64,000 nt of DNA from Nemertoderma westbladi (Eukaryota; Animalia; Xenacoelomorpha), in assembly GCA_032718475.1 (NCBI GenBank), contig JAUCBJ010009146.1:1-64000 (forward strand), in the 5' to 3' direction. The notes beneath the pieces were generated by a model, which was not told the origin of the DNA, ran no database searches, and saw only the letters and a list, made by a program, of their open reading frames with translations. The translations under genes and the position numbers were made by a program. Each line of letters starts with the position of its first letter. The first letter of the stretch is position 1. Shown here one piece after another: positions 21,101 through 55,469 of this stretch.

Positions 21101-21307
21101 CAGCCCTTTGCTAGAGTGGAATACAGTGAGGCAGAAGACCCAGAGAGGGATGTGGCCTCCCCTGTAATTGAGGACTCCATAACCGATAAACTGAAACAGG
21201 CCGAAGAGATGATACACCTCAGTCAGCGCACAATGAAACATCTCACTGATAAAATAACAAAGTTAAATGCAAATACATTATCTGAAGGGACTCATATAGA
21301 ATATTAA
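18161..21307 (+). CDS. CCDC150: CCDC150-like coiled-coil protein, exon 2 (spliced product 1098 aa)
   Basis: 3.1-kb open heptad-rich ORF. Motifs CYELLGQRMTSLE, LRASLEQSQASM and IESKNKMVFEKGKLQAKI...DNDNLRKGN match recalled CCDC150 segments (CEFLVNRMCRLE, LRESLEKSASAM, TESKNKLAYENGKLQIKV...NDHLRKMN). Length is similar. Confidence 0.75.
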   Translation, partial: RADATLNLRDCYELLGQRMTSLEDIIHKLKDYIIDRSAVKDENETANTNNALEKFEKELQKVMIANEVLITENKKLRTSLEITQSNKNDISIKVDNLNSSKQRLLRRVEELKNDVNRECGLRASLEQSQASMIARLGQLEEELANQREEGQTYLSEVNSLRKEVVRLKESNADAVDAKNKAVEFVKKVQNEDNSKVIQLSSYNKKLKSQEKVVTEINEENMVLRDGVEKLLKEHEVTEQELDRLSKENENLHKALKKTVGETVEVEEMLKQRVKELENEASKRLSAEDEIKNKFMKMISCEKEEQARLKERVMVLHKEIGDLQERAEKGDGKIREQLHDKEALVLAMKNEIACLREESAGTLKNKETLLDEINQAVDTMANEKKRYDVDVEMLRMELMSSVEESGKLAEENLHLTERIATIEKQQETHEQIDGRMASLIESKNKMVFEKGKLQAKISTLQEEVLSLGDVRCDNDNLRKGNISLENKVARLTNDITALRINLQKSDAKIKHLENGAVSRDKELGVVISSRDGIIEDNHRLKGELDVLIDSEKSRDSINKRSLVDSKRDNEHLQATLNALLKTQWDLQQSLEMAHSKLGENDGEISSLRENKLINSKELKRIRRQNEELQSRLISADEHSADELGPLRETMEEVQNDNKRLHEQLERVVNSNGQLEARIEHLQDDLMRSNEESCQLRGAQSQTQALVKETQNVYEERLGEVRENVAREKEMEVKRLSRELRDSKRKSEENANKLSKLSFSNQELRKQMEVMKQESSRMVEKVRSQKNLIDHFHRNRKNQQEQQQHLKSVQNELKQLEIKKQEYLTRTNSQEKVINSFLEQLKYLENQISEMSSMNERTVDVCERQASELKSDRRKNELLMRKCDTLARENSNLLETIRCNREFKNTVNSRTAEDNTLYIKPNETVHSRTHVNQPISHNSKQCRNFHGNEMAKSNLDGERQTIRDQQRTAWLDDIIYQPKVANQPFARVEYSEAEDPERDVASPVIEDSITDKLKQAEEMIHLSQRTMKHLTDKITKLNANTLSEGTHIEY

Positions 21308-22395: not shown

Positions 22396-23624
<1,229 letters not shown>

Positions 23625-24687
23625 TAATTTAGCTCAAAGAGATGTTTACAAAACCAAAACCAAGCTGACACCAAACAATAATTAATACATTACGAAGCAC
23701 AAAAAACAATAAAGAGACAAAAAAAAACACTGCAACAAGCAAGCATTGAGCACAAAATACAATTAAATAGATTTAGCTGTTCAAAATAGCTTTGATAAAT
23801 TATGTCATTGATACCTAAATGATAATATATTAATTGGAACAAAAAAAAACACAATATTAAGTCAATTTAGCAGCTTCACAAGAAATATAACCAAGTAAAA
23901 AAATATCCCTAAAAACGTGATTGTTTTTCTAATCCTTGTAAGTTACCAATAATAACAAAAATACATTTTTTAATATTGAACAGATAACACAATTAATACA
24001 ACGAACCTCACATATATTTAGCAACACCAATAATAAGTACAATAATAATGGAGTTTTATATCAATTTAAAAACAACACAATTCAATAAACCCATACCGTA
24101 ACACCTGTAAAATAAAACGACCAACAATTATTACACCGGAGGTATTTATTTGCCGCAAATATTAACGGCAACGGGAAATAAACTAAGCAAAAATAATATT
24201 TAACTGAAAATAAAATAATAAATAATTTAAATTGGTTGTAAACTGAAGTTACCAATTTTTATTACATAAAGATCTGGTGGATATTCTAGAATTTCTGTTG
24301 TGAAAAATACAGGCGGGCAAATAAATAGATGATGGATATTAAATTAATTATTAATAAATATCCTGTAGAAAGAAAATAAATAAAAAAAAAAGAATATAAA
24401 TTTATATTTGTTTTACAGGTTTAATTAATTAACTAACTCTTGGTCAATAAGTCGTTACAATATATATATTTTTTAACAACACAATCTGCCACCAAACATA
24501 CTGAAAGTGAAAGTAATTTAGAAGTTTTAAGGTGGGAAATCTTCGTTGGCACTTGTAGGTGGAGGATGTCTGGCCTTATAAATTATTTATGTAAATATTT
24601 ACAGATTAACCGGAAGTAGTTTAATTATTACCTGTTAGTATGAAGTTCAATCGAACTGGAATGTTTCAACGATTGGGGTATCCTACT

Positions 24688-27183
24688 TGGGAAGGGAGGT
24701 GCCGGTATTGGAAGGGAGGTGTCGGTATTAGAAGGGAGGTGCCGGTATTGGAAGGGAGGTGTCGGTATTGGAAGGGAGGTGTCGGTATTGGAAGGGAGGT
24801 GCCGGTATTAGAAGGAGGTGCCGGTATTAGAAGGGAGGTGCCGGTATTGGAAGGGAGGTGCCGGTATTGGAAGGGAGGTGCCGGTATTAGAAGGGAGGTG
24901 CCGGTATTGGAAGGGAGGTGCCGGTATTGGAAGGGAGGTGCCGGTATTAGAAGGGAGGTGCCGGTATTAGAAGGGAGGTGCCGGTATTAGAAGGGAGGTG
25001 CCGGTATTAGAAGGGAGGTGCCGGTATTGGAAGGGAGGTGCCGGTATTGGAAGGGAGGTGCCGGTATTGGAAGGGAGGTGCCGGTATTAGAAGGAGGTGC
25101 CGGTATTAGAAGGGAGGTGCCGGTATTGGAAGGGAGGTGCCGGTATTAGAAGGGAGGTGCCGGTATTGGAAGGGAGGTGCCGGTATTAGAAGGGAGGTGC
25201 CGGTATTGGAAGGGAGGTGCCGGTATTGGAAGGGAGGTGCCGGTATTAGAAGGAGGTGCCGGTATTAGAAGGGAGGTGCCGGTATTGGAAGGGAGGTGCC
25301 GGTATTGGAAGGGAGGTGCCGGTATTAGAAGGGAGGTGCCGGTATTAGAAGGGAGGTGCCGGTATTGGAAGGGAGGTGCCGGTATTGGAAGGGAGGTGCC
25401 GGTATTAGAAGGAGGTGCCGGTATTAGAAGGGAGGTGCCGGTATTGGAAGGGAGGTGCCGGTATTAGAAGGGAGGTGCCGGTATTGGAAGGGAGGTGCCG
25501 GTATTAGAAGGGAGGTGCCGGTATTGGAAGGGAGGTGCCGGTATTAGAAGGGAGGTGCAGGTATTGGAAGGGAGGTGCCGGTATTAGAAGGGAGGTGCCG
25601 GTATTAGAAGGGAGGGGCCGGTATTAGAAGGGAGGTGCCGGTATTAGAAGGGAGGTGCCGGTATTGGAAGGGAGGTGCCGGTATTAGAAGGGAGGTGCCG
25701 GTATTAGAAGGGAGGTGCCGGTATTAGAAGGGAGGTGCCGGTATTGGAAGGGAGGTGCCGGTATTAGAAGGGAGGTGCCTGTATTAGAAGGGAGGTGCCG
25801 GTATTGGAAGGGAGGTGCCGGTATTGGAAGGGAGGTGCCGGTATTGGAAGGGAGGTGCCGGTATTAGAAGGGAGGTGCCGGTATTAGAAGGGAGGTGCCG
25901 GTATTGGAAGGGAGGTGCCGGTATTAGAAGGAGGTGCCGGTATTAGAAGGGAGGTGCCGGTATTGGAAGGGAGGTGCCGGTATTAGAAGGGAGGTGCCGG
26001 TATTGGAAGGGAGGTGCCGGTATTAGAAGGGATGTGCCGGTATTGGAAGGGAGGTGCCGGTATTAGAAGGAGGTGCCGGTATTAGAAGGGAGGTGCCGGT
26101 ATTGGAAGGGAGGTGCCGGTATTAGAAGGGAGGTGCCGGTATTGGAAGGGAGGTGCCGGTATTGGAAGGGAGGTGCCGGTATTGGAAGGGAGGTGCCGGT
26201 ATTAGAAGGGAGGTGCCGGTATTAGAAGGGAGGTGCCGGTATTGGAAGGGAGGTGCCGGTATTGGAAGGGAGGTGCCGGTATTAGAAGGAGGTGCCGGTA
26301 TTAGAAGGGAGGTGCCGGTATTGGAAGGGAGGTGCCGGTATTAGAAGGGAGGTGCCGGTATTGGAAGGGAGATGCCGGTATTGGAAGGGAGGTGCCGGTA
26401 TTGGAAGGGAGGTGCCGGTATTAGAAGGGAGGTGCCGGTATTAGAAGGGAGGTGCCGGTATTAGAAGGGAGGGGCCGGTATTAGAAGGGAGGTGCCGGTA
26501 TTGGAAGGGAGGTGCCGGTATTAGAAGGGGGGTGCCGCTATTGGAAGGGAGGTGCCGGTATTAGAAGGGAGGTGCCGGTATTGGAAGGGAGGTGCCGGTA
26601 TTAGAAGGGAGGTGCCGGTATTGGAAGGGAGGTTCCGGTATTGGAAGGGAGGTGCCGGTATTGGAAGGGAGATGCCGGTATTAGAAGGGAGGTGCCGGTA
26701 TTGGAAGGGAGGTTCCGGTATTGGAAGGGAGGTGCCGGTATTGGAAGGGAGGTGCCGGTATTGGAAGGGAGGTGCCGGTATTAGAAGGGAGGTGCCGGTA
26801 TTAGAAGGGAGGTGCCGGTATTGGAAGGGAGGTGCCGGTATTGGAAGGGAGGTTCCGGTATTGGAAGGGAGGTGCCGGTATTGGAAGGGAGATGCCGGTA
26901 TTAGAAGGGAGGTGCCGGTATTGGAAGGGAGGTTCCGGTATTGGAAGGGAGGTGCCGGTATTGGAAGGGAGGTGCCGGTATTGGAAGGGAGGTGCCGGTA
27001 TTAGAAGGGAGGTGCCGGTATTGGAAGGGAGGTGCCGGTATTAGAAGGGAGGTGCCGGTATTGGAAGGGAGGTTCCGGTATTGGAAGGGAGGTGCCGGTA
27101 TTGGAAGGGAGATGCCGGTATTAGAAGGGAGGTGCCGGTATTGGAAGGGAGGTTCCGGTATTGGAAGGGAGGTGCCGGTATTG
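24688..27183. repeat. 20-bp minisatellite, ~125 copies (GAAGGGAGGTGCCGGTATT[G/A])
   Basis: Strict 20-bp period, occasional 19-bp units, and one dimorphic position. Confidence 0.98.
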
Positions 27184-27547
27184 CAATATTTGTGAAATTG
27201 ATTAACTAAAAATATAATTATAATCTAGTTAAATATGTTCTGGATTTGGACTGGACAAAGTCCTGTTTATATTAAATATTTAGTTAAAGTATAATTAAAT
27301 ATTCTATAACTAAATTATTATTTTTATGGAAAACAACAATTATTATACCACTGAAATATTAATTATTTTTTGTGAATAAATTATTGTAAATCGATTTATT
27401 TATATATTTTTTAATACGAAAATATTTATAAGTTTTATTATATTATTTGGCTTAGTTTCCCGGGAAATAATATTATATACCCGGATTATCGAATCAAAAC
27501 AAACAACTATAATATTGGCACCGAATTAAACCGCTAAACAATTGGAA

Positions 27548-29002
27548 TCAAAAGAACTTTTTATTAGAAATATCTTTGCTGGTTTTATAGACGTAGAAAG
27601 CGATAAAACCGGAGAGTTGGAGGACGATGAAAAGGATGAAATAAAACTGAGACAGACAGTCGGGAGGGTCTGGGACCGGGCAGCGAGGGGCCGGCTTGTT
27701 AACCAGTCTGGAGACCTCCTGTCTCAGTTGCGAGATCCAATCCCTGAGCTCGGCGTCCGGAGCCGTCCCGGACGCCGGACGCTCGGTGACCGAACGCTGT
27801 TGGACGTCCCGGATGTTATTGGATTTCGTTTGGACGTCCAGAACGACGGATCTAATCTCCTTGACCCACTGGACCAGGTCGTTCTGATTACGGAGCATCG
27901 CCTCCACCTCGTGGCGTTGTATCCCGGACACACCGCCGGACACCTCCAGTAACCGAGCCTGCTGCCCCCGGATGGCGTCCAGCTTCTCTCCGACCTCGGA
28001 AATCGACCCGAACAACCGCGATTGCCCGTTAAAGATCTGCCCGAGTTGCCTCTCCGTCCGATCTTCGAACTCTCCTTCATCTTCCCGGAAACGTTCCGGA
28101 TTTTTCTCTCGGAATTCGTCTTTCTGTTTCTGCAACTTCTCTTGGTAACCTTCGAATTCCTCCTGGTATTTTTTCTCTTCGCGCTCTGTAATATCTTCGG
28201 ATCCTTTATTAGGAGGTTTATAATCCGCGGATTTAATTAAACTCGTCGTTAAGAATGAGAAAACATCGTGATCGTCTGCTAAACCGCCGGTAGCCGCGGA
28301 AATACCGAAATATCCGTCGCTCGGAAGTTGGACTTCCTTTACTCGGAAGCACAACTCCCAATGCGGGGGCCCGTCGGACAACCCGTTGTGGGTCCAAACC
28401 GAAAGGAAGTTGTCGAGGTACTCGACTCGGAGTTTAACCGGATACGGTTTGTTCCGGTAATCTACCGTGCAGGGCCCTCCTGTGAGGGAAGCGGAGCCGT
28501 CCGTAGCGGAATCGTATAGGCGCGTGCCGTCGTTAACGATCGCGAGAATACTGGGGTTGTTACCCCGGCGGTCGTTATCGTACGAGTCCATAAAGACGGC
28601 GAGGCCGCGCCATTTATCGGAGGATCCGAATACAGGGCCTTCCGTTCCCGGGGACGCGGTGTACCACAGCGCGAGTCCATCCGCCCCGACCCGCCCCCGG
28701 CCGCTCACCCGGAAGGCGAGTTCAACCTCCCACCACGCGGATATATTGTAGGGGTTTTTGTTCCAGACGAATCCGCGCTGTGAGCGCAGACTCGGGGCCA
28801 CACGTATGGATTCCGAGGTGGGTATCGCGTGGCCCCCGTGCGTCCAGAAAGGAATTTTATTGTCTTTTAGGATCAGGTTGGGGCCCTTAAAGCTGAATTT
28901 GTATTCGAAACGTCTGTGAACGTCCTGAACATTGACAGCGCTCAAGGCGGGGAATATTAAATTAATAAACGGCAGAAGATAAATAAAAGAAGGTAGATAC
29001 AT
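27548..29002 (-). CDS. LMAN1: ERGIC-53 / lectin mannose-binding 1, intronless CDS, 484 aa
   Basis: Signal peptide, L-type lectin domain (RRFEYKFSFKGP, GRVGADGLALWY, SAATGGLADDHDV), coiled-coil stalk, C-x7-C, TM helix and C-terminal KKFF cycling motif. ATG at 29002. Confidence 0.96.
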   Translation of the reverse strand: MYLPSFIYLLPFINLIFPALSAVNVQDVHRRFEYKFSFKGPNLILKDNKIPFWTHGGHAIPTSESIRVAPSLRSQRGFVWNKNPYNISAWWEVELAFRVSGRGRVGADGLALWYTASPGTEGPVFGSSDKWRGLAVFMDSYDNDRRGNNPSILAIVNDGTRLYDSATDGSASLTGGPCTVDYRNKPYPVKLRVEYLDNFLSVWTHNGLSDGPPHWELCFRVKEVQLPSDGYFGISAATGGLADDHDVFSFLTTSLIKSADYKPPNKGSEDITEREEKKYQEEFEGYQEKLQKQKDEFREKNPERFREDEGEFEDRTERQLGQIFNGQSRLFGSISEVGEKLDAIRGQQARLLEVSGGVSGIQRHEVEAMLRNQNDLVQWVKEIRSVVLDVQTKSNNIRDVQQRSVTERPASGTAPDAELRDWISQLRQEVSRLVNKPAPRCPVPDPPDCLSQFYFILFIVLQLSGFIAFYVYKTSKDISNKKFF

Positions 29003-30061
29003 CGCGTAACTCAGTATTTCCAATTTCTGTAGGCCTATACCAGTATACTGCTACAGTGCTCTATCAGTCTATGCCTGTATGCTGCTGTGTGCTAGTATGT
29101 AGGCCTACACAGCTACAGTCTTACCGTACCGGTACCTGTCTGAAGTCTGGCAGTCAGGTTTTAGACCCGTACAGCAGTAGGCAGGGAAGAGGGGACTGCA
29201 GGACTGCTGGCAGCTAGAGCAATAGGTACTGCAATAGGCTGATAGGCAAGTTGAGTTGAGTGTTAAGTCTGCTCTTCTCAGCTTCTGAAATACTACAGTA
29301 CTACAGACTGTCTGACTCACTGACTGTGGTATTGGTATTGGTATTGGTTTAATGGTGCTCAAAGTATAACATTAAAAGGAACATTAAAATAACACAATTA
29401 TTAAATAACAACAAACATTACATAAGGAACAATAAGGAACATAAGGAACAATATCAAAACTGAAACTGAAGTTATGTTATTATAAATTTGACGCTATAAA
29501 AATGTTATTATGTATTATAGTTATTACTCAATCAGAATGCTTATAATAAATACATTGCGCACCGGGGATAGCCCCTTAAGGCGAGCCTTGTTTCCGAGAG
29601 GGTCCCCGTGGTTAGTTCAATGGGTAAATTATACAGTATAATAAAGATTCGGCGTCATGTATAAAACAATAAAAAAAAATAAATAAATGAGGTTTCAGGT
29701 GCATGAATAATTAAAATATTACATTCTTTAGAACTATGATAAGTATTAAAAAAAAAAAAATAGTTTATTAATATTTACATTAATGCATAAAATTTTTAAA
29801 AAGCCATCCTCATGTGCGTACGTAGATTAAAATATTTGGTAAAATTTACCATTGAAGTGTAGTAGCTTCAGTAAAAATTAAAATCAGTATTTCTCCCCTT
29901 AAATATCTCTCGCAAAATAAAAAATGGGGATGCTTTGTACAAAAATTAAAACTTGTTATGATTAGTTATTTTAGAGTTTTGAGATGTAATAGATCATTAA
30001 TAGTATAAAAAAAATTAAACGCTAATAATTAGTAAAAAGTATAATTAAAATCAGTGAATTG

Positions 30062-33000
30062 TCAATCGAGCGAGCGTAGGTAATGCGATTTTACTGCATG
30101 TTTGAATGCCTCGACAGATACTGACTCGGTTACGTGGCGCGGCAGGCTATTCCAGATCGCTGGGCCCTTATAGTCAAAGGAGAGCTGGCCAAATGCGGTG
30201 TTTTTCTGTGGGATGACCGCTTTAGTTTGGGGGGCGCGCGTGTCACGTGTGGATGAGGAGAAGTCCACCATTTCCTGTATATAGCTCGGGGTGACGTTAT
30301 GGTGAGTTTTGTACATGATAGTTGCCAGGTTTTGTTTAATTCGTAGTTTAATGGGTAGCCAGTTAATTTCTCGAAAGTGTGAATTGTCGATGTGGGTGCG
30401 ATTGTCCAGTCCCAGGCAATACCGGATACATTTCCGTTGTAGGGCCTCCAGTTTGTTTCTCCATAGGATACTAATAGATTGGAACCACACTGGTGATGCA
30501 TAGTCCATTAGTGGTTGTATTAATGCATTGCATAGTAGGCGGCGTGTATTGTAGTCTAGTACACCGGCAAATCGCCACAGGAACTTTAACCGAGAGTTGC
30601 CTTTCTTTATTATTGTTGCAACCATCGATTCACTGTTTAGAGTTTTATCTAATTTGCAACCGAGGTAGTTGACCGAGTCCCTGTTCGCTATTGCTTTCCC
30701 ATTGCATGTCACATTTAGTGGTTCGTTTATGGCTAAACGTTGTGCTGTTCCAAATAGGATACTTTCGGTTTTACCTAAATGGAGAGTTAGGCGGTTGTCT
30801 ATGAGCCATGCTTGGGTGCATTCTAGATTCCGTGTTAGTGATTCCGATATGGTTCTTGAGTCTGAGCCAGGGACTAAGTGCGATATGTCGTCTGCGAACA
30901 TCGGGGTGGGGCAATCAACGGCTTGGTCCGAGTCATTGGTGTGTGAGAGGAAAAGTAGGATCGCTAAGAGAGTTCCTTGTGGTAAACCGTCATCCAGCGT
31001 GCGTTGATCTGAGTCAACCCCCTGTATGGTTACAACTTGGGATCTGCTTGATAGATAGGATTCAAGCCACGCTATTGCTTTGTTGTCAAAGCCCATGTAT
31101 TTCAGTTTCATCAATAGTATGTTGCGATTCACCGTATCATAAGCTTTCTTGAGGTCTATTAACACCATCCCTGTTAACTGGCCACCATCTGCTGCTGATC
31201 GGATGACAGTGTCTATAAATATCAAGCATGTTTCCGTTGAATAGCCTTTACGAAAGGCACTTTGAAGTGCAGATATGATAGAGTTTGATATCAAGTAATG
31301 GTACATCTGATCGTAGATTACTTTTTCTATAATCTTGGAGAGAATAGGTAGTAGAGACACTGGTCTGAAGTTTTCACGTTGAGTTTGTGTGCCCCTTTTA
31401 TAGATTGGTGCCACTTTGGCTAGTTTCATAGCTGAGGGAAATTTACATGTTGTTATGGAGATATTTATAATGTGAGTAATTGCTTTTGTCAGCTCAGTGG
31501 AACAGTCCTTATATATTTTTGCTGGTATACCATCAATGCCGGGACTTTTATCGGGATTAAGGTCGCATAAGATACGAGAAACCACATCCTCTTCAGTTTG
31601 TTTTAGAGTAAAGCTATCTTTAGTTATTCCCTTAGATTCATAGTATCTGGCAACTGCAGCCTCACCAAAGCGACCTGTAGGTGGCGGTAATTGGGTTTCC
31701 AATTCATTAGCAACACCAGTGAAGTATTCGTTAAACGCATCAGCTATTTGTCTAGGGTCAGAAACTAGTTCGGTTCCATTATTGATTGTAAGTGGTCCAT
31801 TTGATTGGCCTTTCTTTGATGGTAAGCCGAGGTTTTTGAGGGTCTTCCATAATTGTTTAGAGTTAGTTCTGTTCTCCTTAATTTGTTCTCGTATGTATGT
31901 CTGTTTAGTTTCCTTTATGAGTTTGGTGGTGTCATTCCTGATTCTCTTGTAATTTGTTTCATTTTCTTCAGTGCGATATTTTCTTGCTGTGGTTAAGGCT
32001 TTATTCCTCATAGTTATAGTGTGTAGAAGATTTGGAGTTAGCCAGGGTTCGGTATGAGTTTTGATTCTGATATCCCGTTTCGGTGCTATAGTGTTGAGGA
32101 TATTTAAAATCTCAGAGTTTAGAATGTCCACGGCTTCATCCACGTCATTTATATTGCCAATGTTATTAATTTTACTATTGTTCACAATCATTTCCTTTAG
32201 TTTTGGTATGGAGTAGTCTCTGTATGTTCTAGCTCGGATTATTTTTGGTATGTATTTATGGTTTTTAATTTTCTTCCTGGTGACATATACGATGTAATGA
32301 TCACTAATGCCGACTTCTATTACTCCAGATGCTGTAACTTTATTTTCCAGTGCTGAAGTATAAATGTGATCGATAATGGTAGAAGATATCTCAGTAACAC
32401 GGGTTGGGTCCTTGATTATTTGTTTAAGTCCAGTAGAGGCACAGAATGAGTCAACTATGTTTTTATTGCTTCGGTCATTACTAGATATGTCTGCATTGAC
32501 GTCTCCAAGGATATAAATTTCTTTATGGTTAGATACCGTTCCAATAAAAGATTCTAAGGATTTGAAGAATTGAGTTATAGATGACTCTGGAGGTCGATAT
32601 ACCGATCCAATGAGGATTTCTTTGGTGTAGGGCATAATGAGAGTTCCAAATACCCCTTCAATATCCATTTGATTCAGTGAAATGCAGGCATTAAATACCA
32701 AATCGTCTCTAGTATATATTGCAACCCCTCCCCATCCATTCTCATTTCTATCCTTCCTGGTAATTTTATACCCTATGATTTCGACTTCTTTGTCAGATAC
32801 TGAGTCATCCAACCACGTTTCAGATACAGTTAGTATGTGTATTCGAGTATATAGTAGGATCAGTTTCAGTTCTGTTAGTTTTGGTAATAAACTTCTAACA
32901 TTGAGGTGTAGCATGTGTATTCCTGGTTTTTCGAATATGGGAGTCCATGGGTATATCAGGGTGCCGGTGCTTGGAGGGGGTGAATTTTGGTGTATGTCGT

Positions 33001-33070
33001 CAGTTGAGATTGACGGATTGTGATTTTGCTCTGTAGTTTGGTTATGAGTTTGGGTTTGAATGTTAGGTAG
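30062..33070 (-). CDS. LINE ORF2, APE endonuclease + reverse transcriptase (first ATG 32914; frame open from 33070)
   Basis: HLNVRSL, SETWL, YRPP, GDVN, IDHI and SDHY endonuclease motifs. NFRPVSLL, DLKKAYDTV, GLPQG and FADD RT motifs. Confidence 0.95.
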   Translation of the reverse strand, partial: LPNIQTQTHNQTTEQNHNPSISTDDIHQNSPPPSTGTLIYPWTPIFEKPGIHMLHLNVRSLLPKLTELKLILLYTRIHILTVSETWLDDSVSDKEVEIIGYKITRKDRNENGWGGVAIYTRDDLVFNACISLNQMDIEGVFGTLIMPYTKEILIGSVYRPPESSITQFFKSLESFIGTVSNHKEIYILGDVNADISSNDRSNKNIVDSFCASTGLKQIIKDPTRVTEISSTIIDHIYTSALENKVTASGVIEVGISDHYIVYVTRKKIKNHKYIPKIIRARTYRDYSIPKLKEMIVNNSKINNIGNINDVDEAVDILNSEILNILNTIAPKRDIRIKTHTEPWLTPNLLHTITMRNKALTTARKYRTEENETNYKRIRNDTTKLIKETKQTYIREQIKENRTNSKQLWKTLKNLGLPSKKGQSNGPLTINNGTELVSDPRQIADAFNEYFTGVANELETQLPPPTGRFGEAAVARYYESKGITKDSFTLKQTEEDVVSRILCDLNPDKSPGIDGIPAKIYKDCSTELTKAITHIINISITTCKFPSAMKLAKVAPIYKRGTQTQRENFRPVSLLPILSKIIEKVIYDQMYHYLISNSIISALQSAFRKGYSTETCLIFIDTVIRSAADGGQLTGMVLIDLKKAYDTVNRNILLMKLKYMGFDNKAIAWLESYLSSRSQVVTIQGVDSDQRTLDDGLPQGTLLAILLFLSHTNDSDQAVDCPTPMFADDISHLVPGSDSRTISESLTRNLECTQAWLIDNRLTLHLGKTESILFGTAQRLAINEPLNVTCNGKAIANRDSVNYLGCKLDKTLNSESMVATIIKKGNSRLKFLWRFAGVLDYNTRRLLCNALIQPLMDYASPVWFQSISILWRNKLEALQRKCIRYCLGLDNRTHIDNSHFREINWLPIKLRIKQNLATIMYKTHHNVTPSYIQEMVDFSSSTRDTRAPQTKAVIPQKNTAFGQLSFDYKGPAIWNSLPRHVTESVSVEAFKHAVKSHYLRSLD

Positions 33071-34171
33071 TCAATCCATTGTTTCTGCATCTGTTGGAGA
33101 TGGGTGATTGGATGAGCGCCTAGGTAATGAAATTTTTGCGGCGTCACTGATGGCTCCCCTGTATATAACCCAGTTCTTATTAGGTTCGGCAGATTGTTTG
33201 GCCCGGCGTTGTTCGCGAAGTTCATACTGTAGTTTTCGTTCTGACGCCGTGTAGTCAGGGGTGATGTAGACATTTTGGTAGTGTTCTGATTGTCTTAAGT
33301 TTCGAGCACTTCTAAGTAGTTCCATTCGTTTTTCAATGGGCAAGGTTACAACAATAGACTGTGTTCCATTGTTTTTTGGTTTCCCAACTCTTCTTGTTTT
33401 TATGTCTTGTTTAAGTATAATAACGTTTACTGAATTAGCTATATCAGCAATCAATGTCTCATCATCAGTGACCGCAGGTGTAGTTCCACTTACTAGAAGA
33501 TTTCTCTTGCGTTTATTTTGTTCTGATTCCTCATCTTTCAGCATTCTAGCAAGTAGAGCTACATTATTGGAAGGTTCATTTTTGTTTTGTTTCAGGGCCG
33601 CAGCGTAGTTCATTGGTTGTCCACATGGGACAGTGGCTGGTTTCTCCGTTGTTTCTTTAAGTTTCAAGTTTATATCGGATTGGTTAGATTCGATATCCTT
33701 TAACTTATATTCAATATCACTCTGTAAAGAAGCTATTGTTTCACTTGCCAGGTATGTATCTTCCTTTATGCGATGTTCGAGATTGTCAATTTGTTGTTGG
33801 AAATCTAGGAATTGCTGATCGGTTAGAGACTTATGTTTCTCGAGATCTTTGTTAACCTGAGTCAGTTGTTTTCCCATACAACGTCCACAGCGAAAGTCAA
33901 CATGTCCGAAGTCTGTTCCTGATTTGGCTATACATATCATAAATATGTCACAGCTTGTTCCAGAGCAGCCAACTTCTATCTCAGTGTACCCGTCATCGCG
34001 TTTCGATTGAGTTGGTGTTATACCTGTACTGGTCAATGGCTTACCGATTTTCGGATTTGGAGACCCGTTATTTGGTCTTGTAGCCCTAGTAGTAACGCTG
34101 TTTCGGCGGTTGTTATTCCTTTGTATTTCAACATCGTTGGTTCTGTCGTTTCGGTTTCGTTGTGAAGACAT
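33071..34171 (-). CDS. LINE ORF1 (Cys cluster, coiled coil, RRM/CTD-like), 366 aa
   Basis: ATG at 34171. CxxxxC...CxxC, coiled coil, then KRKRNLLVSG...RRVGK...VYITPDYTASER typical of CR1/L2-group ORF1. Confidence 0.85.
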   Translation of the reverse strand: MSSQRNRNDRTNDVEIQRNNNRRNSVTTRATRPNNGSPNPKIGKPLTSTGITPTQSKRDDGYTEIEVGCSGTSCDIFMICIAKSGTDFGHVDFRCGRCMGKQLTQVNKDLEKHKSLTDQQFLDFQQQIDNLEHRIKEDTYLASETIASLQSDIEYKLKDIESNQSDINLKLKETTEKPATVPCGQPMNYAAALKQNKNEPSNNVALLARMLKDEESEQNKRKRNLLVSGTTPAVTDDETLIADIANSVNVIILKQDIKTRRVGKPKNNGTQSIVVTLPIEKRMELLRSARNLRQSEHYQNVYITPDYTASERKLQYELREQRRAKQSAEPNKNWVIYRGAISDAAKISLPRRSSNHPSPTDAETMD

Positions 34172-34684
34172 TTCACGGTTCTTTATTAAAGTGATTGCCG
34201 AGTAATTTTTATACCAAATACCAATAAACCATATATCAATTATATAATATATAATGTTTATATACAATTATAGGCAGGCAGTTCAGCGCCGTATCGGTAC
34301 TGCAGTACTGGCTGCGGACTGCAGAAAAGAACAAAAATCAACTGTCAACTGTAGTTTGGCTGGTTGGTAGTACCGGAGGTTACAGGGTTACTGTGGTACG
34401 GTCAGACGGTCAAGGCCTACTACAGTCAGACAGTACTAGACAGCTAGAAGACTTCTAGTCTTCTAGTTATAGTACTGTAGTACCGGTACTGCAGTACTGT
34501 AGTAGGCCTAGGCGGTAGGCCTTGGGTACGGTCTGACGGTAGTCCCTACCGGTACTAAATTAATAAATAAAATGTGGCTCTAATCACTAATGGGCCACCA
34601 TACTGCAGTACAGTAGTAGTACTACTGTCTGACTGTACTAGTAAGAGTAACCATACAGTCCCAATCCCAATAAGCATTAACTTG

Positions 34685-35186
34685 GTCGCGGTGCGATGTA
34701 GGGATTAGGCTGTTAGGGGCGCGTCGCGTTTAACGCACAGACTCAGGCGTTGATCGATATCCTGATATCAGGTCAACCAACCTTGACGCCGAGTCTTACG
34801 CTAAACGTGCTCCTATGACCATTCTCGACAGTCAGGCAGCTCGAGGCTGCGGAAGATGAGAAGAAGCGGTTTTACGCGGCTGCTGTAGCAGCTCGTCACG
34901 GCGACTTCTCACCTTTCGTGGCTTCGTCTGTTCGTGTGACGGCACCGCAGGCGAACATGCTGCTCCGCATTATCGCCACCAAACTTCACAGCTCCTGGCT
35001 GCCTGGGGTAAACCCTACGCCACCGTCATGGGATGGGTCCCCACGCGAGTGCAGTTCGCCATTGTCCGCGTTACGTCCCACTGCCTGCGTTGATCTCGCA
35101 CGAGGTGGCGTAGCGGTCTGGGATTTGAGGACGGAGCCGGTCTTCCAACATTGGCCATGCAGCCATGTAAATAAAACTGTAAATAA
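34685..35186 (+). mobile_element. Degenerate 3' fragment of a CRE-like non-LTR element (restriction-like endonuclease)
   Basis: Frameshifted NLDAESYAKRAPMTIL...AAEDEKKRFYAAAVAARHGDFSPFVAS matches the RLE-domain pattern. Ends in an A-rich tail. Confidence 0.65.
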
Positions 35187-35359
35187 TATATTGTTGGACT
35201 TTTCCCGCTCCTACCTAAAAGTTTTTTTTTTTTTTAAAGTATGACAGTATGATTGCTTCCTGGTGGTGGGTATTAGAGCCATTGTTTGTTTTGTGTTTTA
35301 TATTGTTTGTATATGTTTGTTGTAATAATATACACTTAATTAATAAAAAAAAAATTAAC

Positions 35360-39189: not shown

Positions 39190-42125
39190 CTGAGAGATTG
39201 AGATTGTTTATTGCGCAATAGTCAAATATATGGTTATGGTTAATTATGACATAAACACCAATTAATTAAATATCCATAAATATTAACAGCACTTATTTAT
39301 TTAGTGGTTACATCGAGCTGCGCGGGGATAACCTCATGAGTTATTCAACTCGTTTCCATGAAGGTCCCCGAATGTATCAGTTAAGTCCAACATAATGTTA
39401 AAAACGTAAATAAACAAACTAATAAGAATATTCACGATTACGATACTATTAAAAATCTAATAAATGTAAAAGGTCTTTTTGGTTAAATATTCTAAAATTT
39501 TATAAAATCGTTTGAAAATCATTCTAAAAAATATAGTTGACATGTAAGTTGACATAAAATATAGATACATAGTATGTATCTATATTTTATGTCAACTTAC
39601 ATGTCAAAGCGACGACAGTGTATGTATGTATTACATACATACACTGTCGTCGCTTTACTAAAATTTATTTATTTAAGTTAAAGCGAATTGAATTAAAATC
39701 TTAAAATATTTAAAAAAGGCTTTTAATGGTTAAAGCTCTCAACAACGCAAATAAGTAGTTAATAGGGCTCTAACTGGCTGACTGTAACTTACTGATAGCA
39801 GTATTTAAATAATAATATAGATTTTCATTTTCAGCGGCCATTCACTAATATCTGTTATTGAATTTTAAATAAAAATGTAGTCATTATTTTCATTTTCAGC
39901 TGCCATTGACAAAAGGTATCTTTTTACAGAGTGTTTGAAAGTTTCCAGAGTTTCACAGCTGCGAGTAACCAATGGTAGACCGTTCCAACCAACGGCCCCG
40001 CGGTACGAAAAGGAACTGCACCCTCTAACCAGGTTACGGCGAGGTATGACAGCCCGGTCCTCGCCTCCCGATCGCAGCCCAGAGTGACCCTCGGAGAAGG
40101 AGACGATTTCGCTTAGGTAAGTAGGCGCTATTCCGCGGTAAATTTTGTACATCATCGTTACAAGCAACTGTTCAATGCGATATTCCACAGGTAGCCACGA
40201 TAACTCTTTGAAGTGTGCAACAGATACGTGAGCACGCCGGTCGAGATCAAGACAAGATCGCACACATTTTCTCTGTAACGCTCGGAGTTTACCCTGCAAG
40301 TGAGTGGACGAACTGAAGTACCAGCATGCTGACATGAAGTCGAGGTGAGGCTGGATCAAGGAGTTACATAGTAGACGCTTTGTGTAGCGGTTCAGGGACC
40401 CACCAAAGCGATACATAAAGCGTAACGTCGCATTGCCTTTTTTTATTATCTTCAACGCCATGACGTCACCAGAAAGTAATTGGTTCATGCAGCAGCCGAG
40501 GTACTTTACTTCAGAAACTTGGCGTATAGGGATATTATTGCAGTGTACAATGAGTTCAGATGCGGAGGCTAATCGCTGGGGAGTCCCAAACAAGATACAT
40601 TCCGTCTTCTTAAAGTTGAGGCTAAGTTTATTGTCCACGGCCCACCAGTAGACCCTGGTTAATTGTTTGCTAAGCTTTGGTATATTAGAATGAGAGACCG
40701 TGAGGTTCGCATTGTCGGCCAATTTCATTGATATACAGTTCGGTTCAATGGAAGCAGTTGCTATCGTAGATGTAGAAGGGCTAGTTGAAATAGGTTCCAC
40801 ATAGTCCTTAGTTGCGATGTTCATGTCATTTATGTAGATAATGAACAGTAGAACTGCTAACAAACTTCCTTGCGGCACCCCACATGTTATAGCCATATAA
40901 TCTGAAGACACATTTCCAATAGTCACTGTCTGCATTCGGTGTTCCAGGTAGGATCGAAACCAGGCCACTGTTTCTGGAGAGAGACCAATGAGTACGAGTT
41001 TCGCTAGCAGCCGCTCGTGGTTCACAGTATCGAAGGCCTTTCGCAGGTCGATGAAAACAACTCCTGTGTATTTACCGTCATCCATAGCCTCTCGTATATG
41101 ATTAGACAGATATAACAGACATGTCTCAGGCGAGTAACCCTTCCTGTAGCCAGACTGTAGTTGATCATACAGATTATTGTTAATGATATATTCAGTCATT
41201 TGATCATATGCGATCCCCTCAATTACCTTTGATAGGACAGCTAAGAGTGACACAGGTCGATAATTCCCACGCTCTAGGTGCGTTTCCTTCTTATATACCG
41301 GATTAACCCTTGCTATTTTGAAGGCTTTTGGAAATTTTGACTGGGAAAATGATAGGTTGATTAAATGAGTCATAGGCCCTGCGATGGTTTCTCCACAATC
41401 CCTAAGGAAGCTTGGTGTTAGGCCATCTAGTCCTGGACTTTTATCTATCTTTAGGGCAGATAGTTTTTTAGCAACAGTTTGATCATCAACGTGTTGGAAT
41501 TTGAAACTATTTAGGATAACACCCTTCTTCCTGTAAAATTTTGCAACACCTTCAAGATCGAACGCACCGCTTGATTGGGGAAGATTGTTCACCAAATTTG
41601 AAGCAATTGATGAAAAGAACTCATTGAATTTAGTGGCCATTAGCTTCTGATCTGTTATTAGTTCATTATTAACCATCAGAGAAGTCACCATAGTGGATGA
41701 GACATTCTTACACGGGGCACCCAAATCCTTTAGTGTCTTCCATAGTTTCTTCGAATCATTTCTGTAGGAATTTATTTTCTCCTTAATATACTCTTTTTTG
41801 GCTCTGCGCACTGCAGTTGTTGCTTCATTTACCGCATCTTTATAAGTTTGGCAGTTTACATTCGTTTTCGAGTTTATATAAGCATTCTCATATAAGCATA
41901 TTATATAAGCATTGTTTTTCTCAGCAATTATCGTTCGTACTGTAGAGTCAAGCCATTGGTCCGAACGACTTTTGATCCGCATCGTTCTCATTGGTCTCAT
42001 TCATGAGTATCTAGAGTTGCTTGTAATATTTCTATAAGGTTTTCAATACCAGAATTAACGTCAGTAGCTGATTTTACATCAGCAAAAGAAGAGTTAGTTA
42101 GTAGCATCTAGACAGCAGAGTCTTT
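39190..42125 (-). mobile_element. 5'-truncated L2/Crack-like LINE (RT ORF 39865-42000), probably inactive
   Basis: NYRPVSLL, DLRKAFDTV and GVPQGS present, but the catalytic motif reads LADN. No endonuclease domain. 3'UTR stem-loop and short (CAATCT)n tail present. Confidence 0.9.
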
Positions 42126-44534: not shown

Positions 44535-45593
44535 ATGGATTTGTCGCCATCCCTAGGTTCAAGTCGCCAAGCGCAAGGTGGAAGTGGAAGGCGCAACTCT
44601 ATCAATACAACCGGGACCGGAAAAATCGATAAACAAAAAAAGACAACCCTTAATCCCTCGGCTGCTCCCAAGAAGTTTGTAAGGACCAGTGTTGAGTGTA
44701 CTTTCTGCACATCTGTTTGGACAGAAATCTCTGTACCAGTCGAGATCTCCAAACAAAACGATTTCGCTACCAAAAAATTTGCTTGTGGGTTCTGTGCAGC
44801 TAATCATATTGTTACCTTGGAGGATGACAACCTGCTACTCAACCAAGAAGTAGAATCAAAAAAGAATACCGTCAAAGATAACATTCGTTCACTAACTGAA
44901 ATAGAAGGTGAGGAAAAGCTAGTTGTGGGACGTGAATTGTCGGTGTTTCGTTGTGAAATTGAGACACTTTTGAATGAGGTAGAAGCAAACTATGTCAAAC
45001 TACAATCGAAAGTGGACAACATTGAGTCCATTGCATCATTTCCTCCCCTTTCTCCCGGGAATGATGGTGATGAAGATAGTGGGGGTACATGGGTGGAAAT
45101 TGTAAAACGCAACGCAAAACATTTGGAAGACTTAAATAAGAAAATTGTGCAACAAAAGGTGGAACCCTCTAGTAACAGTATAGAGAAGGTAATCCGACTT
45201 AATGACCAATGGAAACGGAATGTCATTATACATGGAGTACCTGGCGATGGTGCAAGTAACACAGCTATGAAGCGTGAAGCTGATAATAAGTTCCTAGAAG
45301 AGTCTCTGAATGAAAGATTACCCTACTATGGAATCCATCGACTAGGTAAACCAAGACAGGATAACAACCCTCGTCCACTGCTTCTTACATTTAATTCCAT
45401 TGAAGAGGCATTGAAGGTTATATCCCGGAAGGTATTCGTAGGTGGTAGCAACCGATTATATTTCAACAAAGATTTGTCTAAATTTGAACGCGAGATGGAA
45501 TATCAATTTAGGCAGAAACGACGTATCTCCCGCCAACGATCACAATCCACGAGATTGGATGTGACTAGAAACGAAGCTGAACGTCTAGATTGA
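44535..45593 (+). CDS. LINE ORF1, 352 aa
   Basis: CxxC...CxxC, coiled coil, then KRNVIIHGV...HRLGK...RPLLLTF...YFNKDLSKFER. Confidence 0.85.
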   Translation: MDLSPSLGSSRQAQGGSGRRNSINTTGTGKIDKQKKTTLNPSAAPKKFVRTSVECTFCTSVWTEISVPVEISKQNDFATKKFACGFCAANHIVTLEDDNLLLNQEVESKKNTVKDNIRSLTEIEGEEKLVVGRELSVFRCEIETLLNEVEANYVKLQSKVDNIESIASFPPLSPGNDGDEDSGGTWVEIVKRNAKHLEDLNKKIVQQKVEPSSNSIEKVIRLNDQWKRNVIIHGVPGDGASNTAMKREADNKFLEESLNERLPYYGIHRLGKPRQDNNPRPLLLTFNSIEEALKVISRKVFVGGSNRLYFNKDLSKFEREMEYQFRQKRRISRQRSQSTRLDVTRNEAERLD

Positions 45594-48500
45594 CTACCTA
45601 CTGCAGATGCTTCTTACTGCCTCGCTACCACATGTGAGGAACATTCAGTTGGCTCACACCCATACCCCTGGCTATTAAACTTTGAACGGAGTGGAATACA
45701 CTTTCTTCATATAAACATAAACAGTCTACGATATAAAGTACATGAATTAAGTGTAATGTTGAACCCTCCAGTTATCCATGTTATTGCAATAACTGAAACT
45801 AAACTAGATGACTCAATAACAAACCAACAAGTAAAGATTGATGGATATGATATATATAGGAGAGACAGAACTGGGAATGGAGGGGGGGTTGCACTCTATG
45901 TACGTAAACACTTACCATTTGAGGTGAAGCCCCAGTCATATGCCACTCCTTCTGAACTGTTAATTGGCGAATTATACCTTCCTAAGACGAAACCGATACT
46001 CATTGGAGTAATTTATAAACCCGATGCTGACTATTCTATATTCGAAAACCTCGAAATAACTGCAGGTGATTTATCACGCTATAAAGAGGTAATAATAATG
46101 GGTGATACTAATACAAATATGATGTCTGTGATAAATCCATTAACGGGTGAGATAGTCAAAAATCCACTAGGAATACAACATATCGATAACAACCTGAAAC
46201 AACTATTGCAATTCTGCGAGTCGAACAGTATAGTTCAATTAATACGGGAGCCAACTCGAGTAACTTCAACAACTGCCACTCTATTGGACCATATCTTTGT
46301 TTCAAACCCAAATATGGTAATTACTTCTGGAGTAATTAAGGATACGTTAAGTGATCATTACATGGTGTTTGCAACTAGAAAACGTAAAAAATGTTGTCCT
46401 AAGGAACCAAAATATATCAAGTGTAGATCCTATAATGAATATACTGCTGAGAAACTTATATTCGAATTGCATAACAATAGAGAAATAGATAAGATAGCAA
46501 CTACTACCGATGTGGATGAGGCAACCAATATTTTAACGTTAGCTCTGAATACTGCTCTAGATAAACTAGCACCCAAACGCGAGTATCGAGTTCGATGTCA
46601 TTCTCAGCCCTGGGTGGATACTGAGGTCAAAGAAGCCATTATTAATAGAAATAAACAAACCCATAGATTCCAAGAACACGCAGCCATAATGATGAACAAC
46701 TTCTAAAACAAACCCGCAATGAAACTACAACTATAATTAGAAAGAAGAAGACTGCGTATATCAAAGAGAAAATTGCATTGGCTGGTAAAGACAGTAAAAA
46801 ACTTTGGAAAGCATTGAAAGACATTGGACCCCATTCAAAAAAACAAAAAGAGGATCCCTCAACTCCTACCGTTTTTAAAATAGACGGAAATATATGTAGC
46901 AACACCGAAGATGTATGTAATTATTTTAATGATTACTTTTTAACAATAGCAGATGAGCTCGTAAGTAAGTTTCCGCCACCTAGTGGAAACTACGATATTC
47001 CGAAGGTGGTGGACTATTACAAAAAACTGGGAGTTGTGGAAAATTCTTTCGAATTACACCCTACGACATATGACGAGGTTTACAAAATATGTTCTAGGGT
47101 TGATGTTTCTAAAGCCACTGGATTGGATGAGATACCGGCAAAGATAATAAAGGATGGGTTATCAGTCATTATATCCCCCCTACTGCATATTATTAACCAA
47201 TCTATAATAACCACTAAGTACCGTACAAGTTACAAGATTGCTCATGTAAAGACTGCATATAAAAGCAGTGGTTCGCGACTAGAGAGAGGAAACTTTCGCC
47301 CTCTCTCATTACTTCCAATAATGTCTAAAATACTTGAAAGAGTTGCATTTAACCAGCTGCAAGACACTATATCAATAACAAACTAATAAATAAACTTCAG
47401 TCGGGCTTTCGGGAGGGATATTCAACTGAAACGGCATTAATCTTTGTAGATAGCGCTATTAGAAATGGTATGGACAATGGCAAACTCACTGGTATGGTCA
47501 CTATAGACTTTCGAAAAGCCTTTGACTGTGTGAATCACAATATATTGTTAGAAAAACTAAAGGCTATGGGCGCTACCGATAAAACAAAAGATTGGTTCGA
47601 ATCATATCTTTCTGGTAGACAACAGTTCGTTGCTATTGGCAACACACGATCGGAGACTAAACCTGTTAAAAATGGTGTTCCCCAGGGATCTATCTTGGGA
47701 GTTCTACTGTACCAAGGAGACACTAACGACTTCCACATGGTAAGAGGATGACACCCTGGACCCAACCTTTGCCCATGACACAAACTTAATAAAAACCAAT
47801 GATGACTCAGAATTAATTTCTAAAAGTTTGAGTTCAACAATGGACAGAGTATTCGACTGGTGTGTACAAAATAAACTGACAATAAACTTTGATAAGACCT
47901 ACAGCATACTCATTGGAACACACCAAAAGATAGCTTCCTCTCCTGAACTAGAAGTCTATTGTGGTGGGCAATGTATAAAAAATGCAAAATCGGTCACTTA
48001 CCTTGGCTCCGTGCTAGACCAACATCTAAGTGGGACCGAGATGGCCACAAAGGTAATAAAGAAATGTAACAATAGATTGAAGTTTTTACATAGATATGGC
48101 GGATTACTAGACTACTATACAAGACGTTTGCTATGCAATACACTGATACAACCACATATCGATTACGCCGCATCTACTTGGTTTTACAGCATAACTCAAC
48201 GCCTTCATAAGCAATTGGAAGCACTGCAGAGGAAATGTGTTAGATATTGCCTTGGTTACGGTCCTCGTGAACATATCGGAATCCAACACTTCAAAGAAAT
48301 AAATTGGCTCCCTCTAAACGAAAGAATAAAGGCAGTTATAGCATCACATATGTTCAAAATTGTTAACAACATATCACCCGATTACATGTCAGACCTCGTT
48401 AACCTTCGTTGTCAAACACGCTCACTGCGTTCTACTGAGTCATCAGCTGCGCTCCCCCATTGTACGACAGTTTGCGGCAAGAAAGCGTTCACTTACTTGG

Positions 48501-48640
48501 GCCCAAAAATTTGGAACGAACTGCCTCAAAGCTTAACGAACGTGAAAACTTTAGAAGTGTTCAAACACAACCTCAAAGACTACTACCTACAGCAGCTGCT
48601 AAGCGAAAATGCAAATGAATACATTTATTATGATTATTAA
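45594..48640 (+). pseudogene. LINE ORF2 (APE-RT), disrupted
   Basis: HININSL, TETKL, GDTN, LDHI, SDHY, NFRPLSLL, DFRKAFDCV and GVPQGS motifs. Frame breaks near 46670, 47370 and 47750. The catalytic motif reads FAHD. Confidence 0.9.
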
Positions 48641-49609
48641 TTAACATAACAAACATTGTATTTTATTGAACTTCATAATTATTTATTTTATAGGCTATAT
48701 TTTATATATTACAGTATTTTTATTATTGCATTTATTGCTATTTTTTATTGTATTTTTCAGTTACTTTTAGCATTTCATTGGCGCCATTCCATTTACATTA
48801 CAATTTTGGTGCAAATAATATTGTCTGCTGCATAGAGCACAGGGACCCTTATGGAAACGAGGTGAAACCTCATAAGGCTATCCCTCCATTTTAATCTAAT
48901 ATTGCACATTTTCTACTTGTTTTTTATTTTAAGGTTCTACTTGTTTTATTTTTGTCTACCTTGTTTTATTGATGTCTACCTTGTTTTATTTTGTCTACCT
49001 TGTTTTATTTTGTATACCTTGTTTTATTGTATAAAATTATACTGAGACTCCGAGTTAATTTTACTGGACATATGTGATAAGTTTTAAACTACGTGTTCGT
49101 ATTTTATTGTACCTTGTTAAATAAATTTTATTGTACCTTGTTAATATAAATTTCATTGTATATATATTTTAAACTGTAAATTTTATTTTATTTCAAGTTT
49201 AATGTATGTATATACACGTGATTTATTGTAAACTACTGTACAGAGTTAGACAATTTTATTACATAATTTCAAACATGTATTACCGTCCATTAATTTACAT
49301 AATTTACATAAAACAATGAAAAATAAATTACCGGTAAATTGTGATTTATATATATTATTTCAATATTGTGCAGTATGTATTTTTATATGGGAAAAAATTC
49401 AATCAATCAATCAATGTCATTGTAGCCCTATATGGTGACATACCAGCAGTATGTGACCACCTAGCCAGAGTAGTAGTATAGTAGTAATATATAGTAGTAA
49501 GATATAGTAGTAATATATAGTAGTAAGATATAGTAGTAATATACAATAGGTACATACATTGAATAGGACTAATGAATGTATCTTGCTGAAATATTATTAT
49601 TATCTGATA

Positions 49610-53528: not shown

Positions 53529-54312
53529 AGGTATCTTTTCAAACACCTACTGATATCTATCTTACAGTCTTATCCTTCCTATACAGTATATAGGAATGAT
53601 ATGGACAATAACTACATATCAGCATCGAATTAATTTGTACCGAAATACTGAATAATAAGGTTCAATCAACTCACTTTAACGAATAGCAAGTGCAATGGAG
53701 AAGTTCCTACAACAGCCAATCTGTAGAAAATATGGCAAAGGTTCAAAATAAACCTATTTTATTATCTTATACTATTTGGAACTAGTCCCACTGCAACATT
53801 CAAATTCGAAAAAAAAACAGCTTTTTCAGCAACATTTTTTCATGGTTTGAAGGTCACCGTGGGAGTAGTTCGGCACATTTTTGGACACCATCGTTGATAT
53901 TTATCGAGTTTTTACACAATTTGGAACAAATTCTCGTATGTAGTAAAGTAATATTGATAGCGAAAGTTGGTTTTTTTTAACCACTAGCAATCAAGGCTGC
54001 AAGGCTAGCAGCAGCCTGGCAGCAGCAATACAACCAGGTCAGAAGGTGTACGTACACGCGAACAACACCTTGCAGGTTGCAGCCTTGAATACAACACAGC
54101 AATACCGGACAGCCGGACCAGTGCCCTGTTGTCTGAGTGTCATCACTGCACTGACCACAGAACCTCTGAACCTGTCTGCCAGTGCAGGTGCAGCAACGCA
54201 ACAGTCAGTACTGCAGTAGGCTACTGAATTGTTAATACCGGTACTGCTGTACTGTACTGCCTGACTGCTGTAATATTTAAATACTCAGATACTGAAACTG
54301 AAATCAGGAAAT

Positions 54313-54956: not shown

Positions 54957-55469
54957 GTCAGTAGGTTGAATTTAAAGATTAGGCCCATTATATTAGTTGG
55001 AGTATATTTTTTTGTTTAGGCCTACTAGTCTTCGGCGGACACTATTGACTATTATACTATTCTTCCTCTGGGTTTATGAATTTTACACAAGTCTGCAAAG
55101 GACGCGGCCTGGCCTGGCGATATAGGCCTGGCCTATATATATCAGTATATTGTTTTATTTGTAAAAAAAAATACAAAAAAAATACAAAAATATCAATCGG
55201 TACCGGCACCGGTAGTAAAAAAGTCTTAAAAAGAATTAATCTAAAATTAGTATTTTTTTAAATATACAGACGGCTGGACGGGAGCGGAATTAACCCACTG
55301 TATGTATGTAGTTCTTAGTCTGTTGCTTAAGGTTACAAACTCTATTCACACCACTACCCTTGTTGCTACTTATTCCATTACGGTACTTAAAGTTACAACA
55401 TCTGTTATTTAAATTATAATTTCTTTATTATTTATTTTTAATTTCACACCATATCAATAAAGATTGGGT

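Follow-up and report, generated by a model that had tools for sequence, protein, structure and literature searches.

How the second open reading frame (ORF) is translated from the bicistronic RNA of a long interspersed nuclear element (LINE) is a long-standing question, worked out, in the accounts given by PMC3708506 and PMC5972666, for SART1 and partly for L1. The question arises anew for a LINE, here element A, on the minus strand of a 64,000-nucleotide stretch of the Nemertoderma westbladi genome (contig JAUCBJ010009146.1, positions 1 to 64,000; hereafter the window), in which ORF2 follows ORF1 in the same frame behind a single UGA. A preliminary description of the window had proposed that this UGA is read through to give a fusion of ORF1 with the endonuclease and reverse transcriptase (RT). 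A second LINE, element B, absent from that description, lies 12 kb from A. The parts of the two elements that matter here are the following.

33071..34171, minus strand: ORF1 of element A, 366 amino acids plus TGA, ATG at 34171
33064..33076, minus strand: junction of element A, GAT TGA CTA CCT A (predicted readthrough site), TGA at 33073-33071
30062..33070, minus strand: ORF2 frame of element A, 1002 codons, apurinic/apyrimidinic endonuclease (APE) plus RT (FADD)
32915..33070, minus strand: spacer of element A before its first Met, 52 in-frame codons, a variable S/T/P/Q/N-rich linker and then PWTPIFEKPGIH
44535..45593, plus strand: ORF1 of element B, 352 amino acids plus TGA
45588..45600, plus strand: junction of element B, GAT TGA CTA CCT A, TGA at 45591-45593
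45594..48640, plus strand: ORF2 of element B, in frame with ORF1; this copy is frameshifted further downstream, in four pieces

The minus strand of element A reads ...ACA ATG GAT TGA CTA CCT AAC ATT... across the junction. Rereading the sequence bore out the ORF1 end given earlier (ATG GAT TGA CTA CCT AAC, with the TGA at 33073-33071) and the 52 codons without a stop or an in-frame ATG that run into ORF2, the first in-frame ATG being codon 53; an out-of-frame ATG at +123 had gone unmentioned. The predicted ORF1-APE-RT product of 1369 amino acids also agrees with the sequence, in which ORF1 (366 codons), the stop and ORF2 (1002 codons) make up 1369 codons in frame 0. ORF2 matches the Pfam families Exo_endo_phos and RVT_1 (PF03372, PF14529, PF00078), and the predicted fold of its endonuclease, a weak model (pLDDT 55), has the L1 endonuclease as its best match (E 2.5e-7). 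ORF1 has no Pfam match above the cut-off, and PF02994 is not hit; we take it, by motifs of the Tnp22 type, to consist of a degenerate Cys-rich N-terminus, a likely coiled coil and a region resembling an RNA recognition motif and C-terminal domain. Taken alone, the layout of A is weak evidence. When the bases are shuffled 20,000 times, 13% of the shuffles yield a 52-codon spacer free of stops, and the prior for frame 0 is 1 in 3.

The layout of A is more than chance because element B has the identical 13-base junction. The two families are far apart, with about 24-28% identity in ORF1, about 41% in the endonuclease region and 41-53% in aligned coding DNA. The junction is nevertheless identical at 13 of 13 bases and in frame in both, and the ORF1 tail and the linker that flank it are otherwise unconserved. 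Within the window the 13-mer GAT TGA CTA CCT A has two exact occurrences, these two junctions, one on each strand. From the stop to the start of the endonuclease there are 49 codons in A and 33 in B, and the frame is kept despite this difference of 16 codons (48 nt); behind the stop, the B frame is open for 370 codons before the first frameshift of this copy. Exact runs of at least 13 bases between A and B are otherwise rare (one, of 14 nt at the catalytic SDH motif, in 2,772 aligned bases of three coding segments), and identical residues elsewhere seldom share a codon (Leu 8/37, Pro 7/20, Asp 8/19). Because a 13/13 match stands amid divergent DNA with few exact runs and low codon sharing, the comparison indicates that the junction is conserved at the nucleotide level. 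The preliminary description had suggested looking for frame 0 and TGA-CTA in a related family, and B keeps both.

In each family the stop is the prevailing form, since contigs of three runs span both junctions unchanged. We aligned contigs from four runs, of which X1 and X3 come from one sample and X2 from another study; X4 has no cover of the A junction, ends 11 bases past the B stop and was not counted. The A junction is spanned with no other letter in three of the four runs (two studies). The B junction is unchanged in the same three, in contigs that differ from the window copy at five listed places each nearby. Contigs drop rare variants, and their depth was not taken as copy number. A sense codon at this site in most copies, the outcome that the preliminary description had named as contrary to its proposal, is not what the contigs of these two studies contain: TGA is the majority form.

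We then considered where translation of ORF2 could begin. The first in-frame ATG of A (codon 53 after the stop, 32914-32912) has a weak context, CAC ATG C, and is overlapped by the out-of-frame ATG (32948; 17 codons). In B, three out-of-frame AUGs come before the first in-frame ATG (45756, codon 55), which stands 14 codons beyond Asn41 in the sequence HININS. The distance from the stop to these AUGs is 157 nt in A and 163 nt in B, and neither element has an overlapping or adjacent stop-start. The counterpart of B Asn41 in an alignment with exonuclease III is the first-strand Asn; judged by motif, B Asn41 would occupy the position of L1 Asn14 and APE1 Asn68, described in PMC8565326 as a water-coordinating residue of the active site. 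From its sequence, then, B appears to have no usable AUG for ORF2. In A, PWTPIFEKPGIH is the homologue of the W/F-x-x-F-K-K-R-G-L-H motif that opens the endonuclease. We compared the spacer with a profile of relatives in place of the ratio of nonsynonymous to synonymous substitution rates (dN/dS) that had been called for; the motif is present in 90 of 102 sister-group rows, which provide 86 distinct relatives. The 12 residues before the A Met match F-K-K-R-G-L-H, and shuffled spacers score as high in 4 of 5,000 cases for A and 8 of 5,000 for B. Upstream of the Met, F-11 matches 62 of the 86 relatives, G-7 matches 81 and H-5 matches 81; in the column of the Met itself, 58 of 86 have Phe and 4 have Met. 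The spacer codons next to the endonuclease thus look constrained as protein, which is the outcome that selection on the spacer was expected to leave. Because the B AUG lies past Asn41, the residues upstream of the A Met match the motif of relatives and Met is rare in that column, translation likely runs into the endonuclease from codons ahead of any AUG.

The sequence context of the stop suggests how. Both elements have TGA CTA with ORF2 in frame behind it, and UGACUA is, with UGACGG, a type II readthrough hexanucleotide in the scheme of Beier and Grimm, for which downstream structure is described as conditionally required (PMC13517186). The earlier remark that UGA-CUA is a known leaky context finds its counterpart in print; the same source gives at least about 1.3% readthrough for UGACUAG in human genes. 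We consider it probable that ORF2 of A and B is translated by programmed type II (UGA-CUA) readthrough into an ORF1-endonuclease-RT fusion, because the two share an identical in-frame 13-nt context, B has no usable AUG, and protein constraint extends upstream of the A Met. Most ribosomes would stop at the UGA and release the ORF1 protein (ORF1p). A minority, probably about one to a few percent, would decode the UGA with a near-cognate residue and go on to translate a disordered linker and then the enzyme, which would set a high ratio of ORF1p to RT from one mRNA. A Pfam scan of the element A ORFs found no protease domain, and no motif like GD(V/I)ExNPGP, as in 2A peptides, lies between stop and endonuclease in A and B; for these two reasons the fusion is likely uncleaved. 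If it stays whole, its ORF1 coiled coil may co-assemble with free ORF1p and, more speculatively still, tie the enzyme to a particle of its own RNA. The comparative tests thus favour the readthrough fusion that had been proposed; its description as gag-pol-like overreaches, given that neither a protease domain nor a 2A motif was found.

A third family of the same lineage, also in the window, widens the comparison to relatives.

39325..42000, minus strand: element C, 5'-truncated, without endonuclease and without junction

After PQG, the RT motif reads PQGTLLAI in A, PQGSILGV in B and PQGSLLAV in C, all without the Pro of the usual PQGSILGP. GP is kept in 11 of the 12 commonest PQG forms among relatives, and the missing Pro appears from these alignments to be a trait of the lineage. 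Scans of metagenomes and genomes gave 83 loci for comparison (the best 80 of 192 confirmed, plus 3 of 3); three scans of viral contigs gave no relative, and a word-index search with ORF1 gave no match. The endonuclease tree (207 rows) places A and B together (0.99), and the RT-thumb tree (222 rows) groups A, B and C (0.999). In a careful tree of 31 of the 222 rows, A/B/C has 100/100 support and lies within a 100/99 group holding 19 elements with a 2A-like motif; whether A/B/C is nested in the 2A-type elements or sister to them is an open fork in this tree. Among the scanned loci placed in trees there is no further member of the A/B/C clade. As a lead only, the three may be called Crack-like and of the CR1 group, in its L2/Crack/Daphne lineage: they group with unnamed 2A-bearing elements whose layout resembles that of the Crack, L2 and CR1 elements in PMC3708506, and PMC13343379 describes the clade names around Crack and the CR1 group as unstable. 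A profile built from the ORF1s of A and B finds 3,881 proteins (HMMER), in the best 150 of which the last residue is not conserved (Asp in 13/150). In PMC4120745 a type II ORF1 combines a PHD finger with a transposase-22 part made up of coiled coil, RRM and CTD. The N-termini in a profile of 10 ORF1 relatives match PHD fingers; the matches listed for this profile (60 of 122) do not include L1 ORF1p.

Across the 83 loci, a 2A-like motif stands in frame ahead of the endonuclease in 48 and an ORF1-like frame lies upstream of it in 11. In seven two-ORF LINEs of greater distance, ORF1 and ORF2 share a frame on either side of a single TGA, which speaks for readthrough (L063, L071, L076, L079, L081, L083 and the first element of L001, 1-1002); five of them, L063, L076, L079, L081 and L083, form one esterase-type clade, 44-69% identical. 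The ORF1 of L076 is cut by the contig end, and L076 and L071 were read by eye. By these sequences, in-frame TGA junctions recur in about three further lineages, and the CUA context is found here in A and B only.

Two features at the 3' end of the elements bear on how the UGA is read.

30029..30067, minus strand: end of ORF2 of element A, a second GAT TGA C(AA) (TGA 30064-30062), then QFTDFNYTFY, 10 codons in the same frame and similar to the C-terminal motif of the lineage
29565..29606, minus strand: stem-loop of three helices in the 3' untranslated region (UTR) of element A, GGAC-C...GGAAA-Y-R-AG...TATCC
48842..48884, plus strand: stem-loop in the 3' UTR of element B
39368-39325, minus strand: 3' stem-loop of element C

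The A ORF2 stops 30 residues past the WNxLP motif, and the 10 further in-frame codons would bring it to position 41. Relatives end at positions 27-31 in 47 of 107 cases and at 38-43 in 41 of 107, B at 42 and C at 40; scored against the long-form C-termini, the 10-codon tail is equalled by only 3 of 810 UTR stretches. Element A had been called intact, which holds in that both ORFs are open; its ORF2 stop, though, falls 10 codons short of the C-terminus typical of the lineage. The simpler reading of this second TGA is that a nonsense change has recently cut off a dispensable tail; the less simple one is that this stop, too, is leaky. The 3' UTR structure is common to A, B, C and five 2A-type loci (L006, L012, L014, L016, and L022/L023 counted as one). 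In the eight sequences, 93% of cells are paired and 7 of 14 pairs have two-sided changes, and no Rfam family matches the structure in a scan of 29000-50000 (15 weak matches). LINEs of the CR1 group have a structured 3' UTR and a short-repeat tail in place of poly(A); here the structured 3' UTR is present in all three elements and a (CCAATA)n tail in A. The structure is likely a recognition signal for the RT and not a readthrough enhancer.

Other routes into ORF2 have to be set against readthrough. Ribosomes might terminate and restart without an AUG at or just past the stop, as in L1, to give a separate ORF2p, the 13 nt being the restart signal. For L1, PMC5009743 and PMC5972666 take the start of ORF2 to be independent of its AUG, which weighs on this side, and such a restart would also explain the missing AUG in B and the constrained codons before the A Met. 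What it predicts is neither a leaky UGA followed by exactly CUA nor a frame 0 kept across a 48-nt indel, and CUA is, as general knowledge has it, a poor start codon; we hold this route to be unlikely. A further route is ordinary termination, after which ribosomes would scan to codon 53 in A or codon 55 in B, the first AUG in frame; the shared frame of ORF1 and ORF2 would then be the relic of a once-fused ORF. SART1 is described as using termination-reinitiation, of which a variant has been proposed for L1 (PMC3708506, PMC5972666), and an early Met is present in three of the seven distant in-frame loci. The A AUG precedes the first-strand Asn, so that A alone could use reinitiation, a point against readthrough; even there, the out-of-frame AUG overlaps an in-frame AUG of weak context. 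The B product would be missing the first strand and Asn41, and three out-of-frame AUGs come earlier; in a relic, 13 of 13 bases would not have stayed the same while the families fell to 41-53% identity in DNA. There is little to recommend reinitiation at these AUGs as the explanation of both elements.

The stop might also be bypassed at the level of RNA, if the transcript is spliced or edited or if there is an internal promoter such as the minor one at the junction of Tca2 (PMC2194720). A and B do not both have a strong donor/acceptor pair around the stop, nor did we find a double-stranded structure for editing that they share, and an internal promoter would still leave B without a usable AUG; we regard this explanation as very improbable. 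That UGA is read as sense, by selenocysteine insertion through a 3' UTR element or by a changed nuclear code of the host, would accommodate the second GAT TGA C of A with its coding-looking tail as well as the conserved 3' UTR structure. The intronless LMAN1/ERGIC-53 ORF of the window, however, ends in KKFF-TGA and has 10 TGG and no internal TGA, and a 1048-codon ORF also lacks an internal TGA. A loose pattern for the selenocysteine insertion sequence (SECIS) has 0 matches in the A and B 3' UTRs, no SECIS is among the 15 weak Rfam matches in 29000-50000, and the 3' structure is present in relatives for which no such junction was found. UGA is, by the reading of these ORFs, a true stop in the host, and we give its use as a sense codon next to no credence.

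Several further observations weigh against readthrough. The closest relatives mostly carry 2A-like motifs instead, and three closer ones (L030, L036, L060) have a distant upstream esterase ORF, an own Met and a 2A-like motif. In the seven distant in-frame loci, CTA follows the stop in none, the 3' contexts being mixed, and an in-frame Met precedes the endonuclease in three (L063, L071, L083) and in none of the other four; in L003 the two ORFs are in different frames. At the seventh position A and B have C (UGA CUA C), not G as in the mammalian UGA CUA G motif, and they share no downstream fold (z -0.92 and -1.24 over 150 nt); a small hairpin at +56 in A (z -3.98 over 80 nt, -5.8 kcal/mol) has no counterpart that we saw in B. 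We rejected the idea that long-range pairing to the 3' UTR is a signal common to both: A has a 15-bp complement between +197 and a site near the 3' end (2 of 40 shuffles as good) and B has none (18/40, 35/40). The gag-UGA-pol junction of Tca2 is reported not to have directed readthrough in a yeast reporter (PMC2194720). Finally, the two families with the exact CUA context belong to a single host, and one of the contig runs may be the window's own source.

A broader scenario, which we think doubtful, is that the A/B/C lineage swapped recoding devices. An ORF1 would have been captured in frame before a single-ORF element of the 2A type, with the leaky GAU-UGA-CUA replacing StopGo and the RT becoming a permanent fusion. 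Element A would reuse GAU-UGA-C at the end of ORF2, so that two readthrough events would be needed, pointing to an unusually leaky UGA-C in the host.

The remaining observations concern the surroundings of the elements. The ends of A and the neighbouring gene are as follows.

29347-29328, minus strand: (CCAATA)n tail of element A
29327-29320, minus strand: candidate 8-bp target-site duplication ACAGTCAG, 5' copy at 34636-34629
27548-29002, minus strand: intronless LMAN1/ERGIC-53 ORF, with the A tail about 330 bp upstream of its start

As a target-site duplication of A, ACAGTCAG is uncertain; its 5' copy sits in low-complexity DNA. Element A may lie in the promoter region of the LMAN1 ORF. Contigs of X1-X3 skip 678 bp at 34676-35353, probably because a mobile element inserted there is missing in other alleles or copies. 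In these three runs there are also contigs of a further family, about 80% like the B ORF1 over 42 bases (window 45281-45322), whose junction is outside view. The 3' UTR of C holds two adjacent strong inverted repeats (39539-39658) with sub-threshold microRNA-like Rfam matches, perhaps a small inserted element. Elsewhere in the window are a transposase-like ORF of 534 codons that ends in PHD-like fingers (50313-51917, plus strand; read by eye), the 1048-codon ORF mentioned above, uninterrupted and coiled-coil-like (18161-21307, plus strand; read by eye), and what we take, by eye and from recall, to be a nicalin-like first exon (54274-54969, plus strand). A near-identical 4.9-kb tandem duplication beside the N gap, which may have arisen in assembly, and three minisatellites of some length occupy 2726-15231, 22413-23689, 24690-27186 and 57354-60165.

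In alphaviruses the polymerase lies behind a leaky stop. The hexanucleotide of A and B is that of Sindbis, ONNV and PSIV (UGACUA) and of the mammalian UGACUAG genes; unlike the type II viral cases covered by PMC13517186, A and B are LINEs, have no stem-loop in common and have no protease that we found. The 2A-bearing LINEs of the Crack, L2, CR1 and Rex1 clades resemble them in placing a recoding-type signal just upstream of the endonuclease, and are described as mostly having a single ORF, an own AUG and a GD(V/I)ExNPGP-like motif (PMC3708506). A and B differ from these in their separate ORF1, their stop codon and the lack of an NPGP motif. SART1, with UAAUG coupling, and mammalian L1, with unconventional reinitiation, share with A and B a bicistronic RNA that needs low ORF2p (PMC3708506, PMC5972666, PMC5009743), whereas A and B have no overlapping stop-start and a single stop between the ORFs, and B has no usable AUG. 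Tca2 of Candida albicans also has an in-frame UGA between structural and enzyme genes but is, in the account of PMC2194720, a long terminal repeat element with a predicted pseudoknot.

A 13-nt junction kept in two divergent families, one without a usable AUG, makes a compact test case. If the reading is right, readthrough would be a further route to ORF2 beside coupling, unconventional reinitiation and 2A; some LINE RTs would act as ORF1 fusions, and annotations that start ORF2 at its first Met would be wrong for such families. We found no published report of readthrough in an animal LINE in a search that covered neither Repbase notes, subscription journals nor most supplements. Readthrough in a LINE has already been proposed in print: for the Group 3 LINEs of Paramecium tetraurelia, PMC5405496 proposes it at the ORF1 stop from consensus sequences. 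Compared by layout only, those elements form a ciliate clade with a zinc-finger ORF1, whereas A and B are CR1-group-like and carry a UGA-CUA stop kept in two divergent families.

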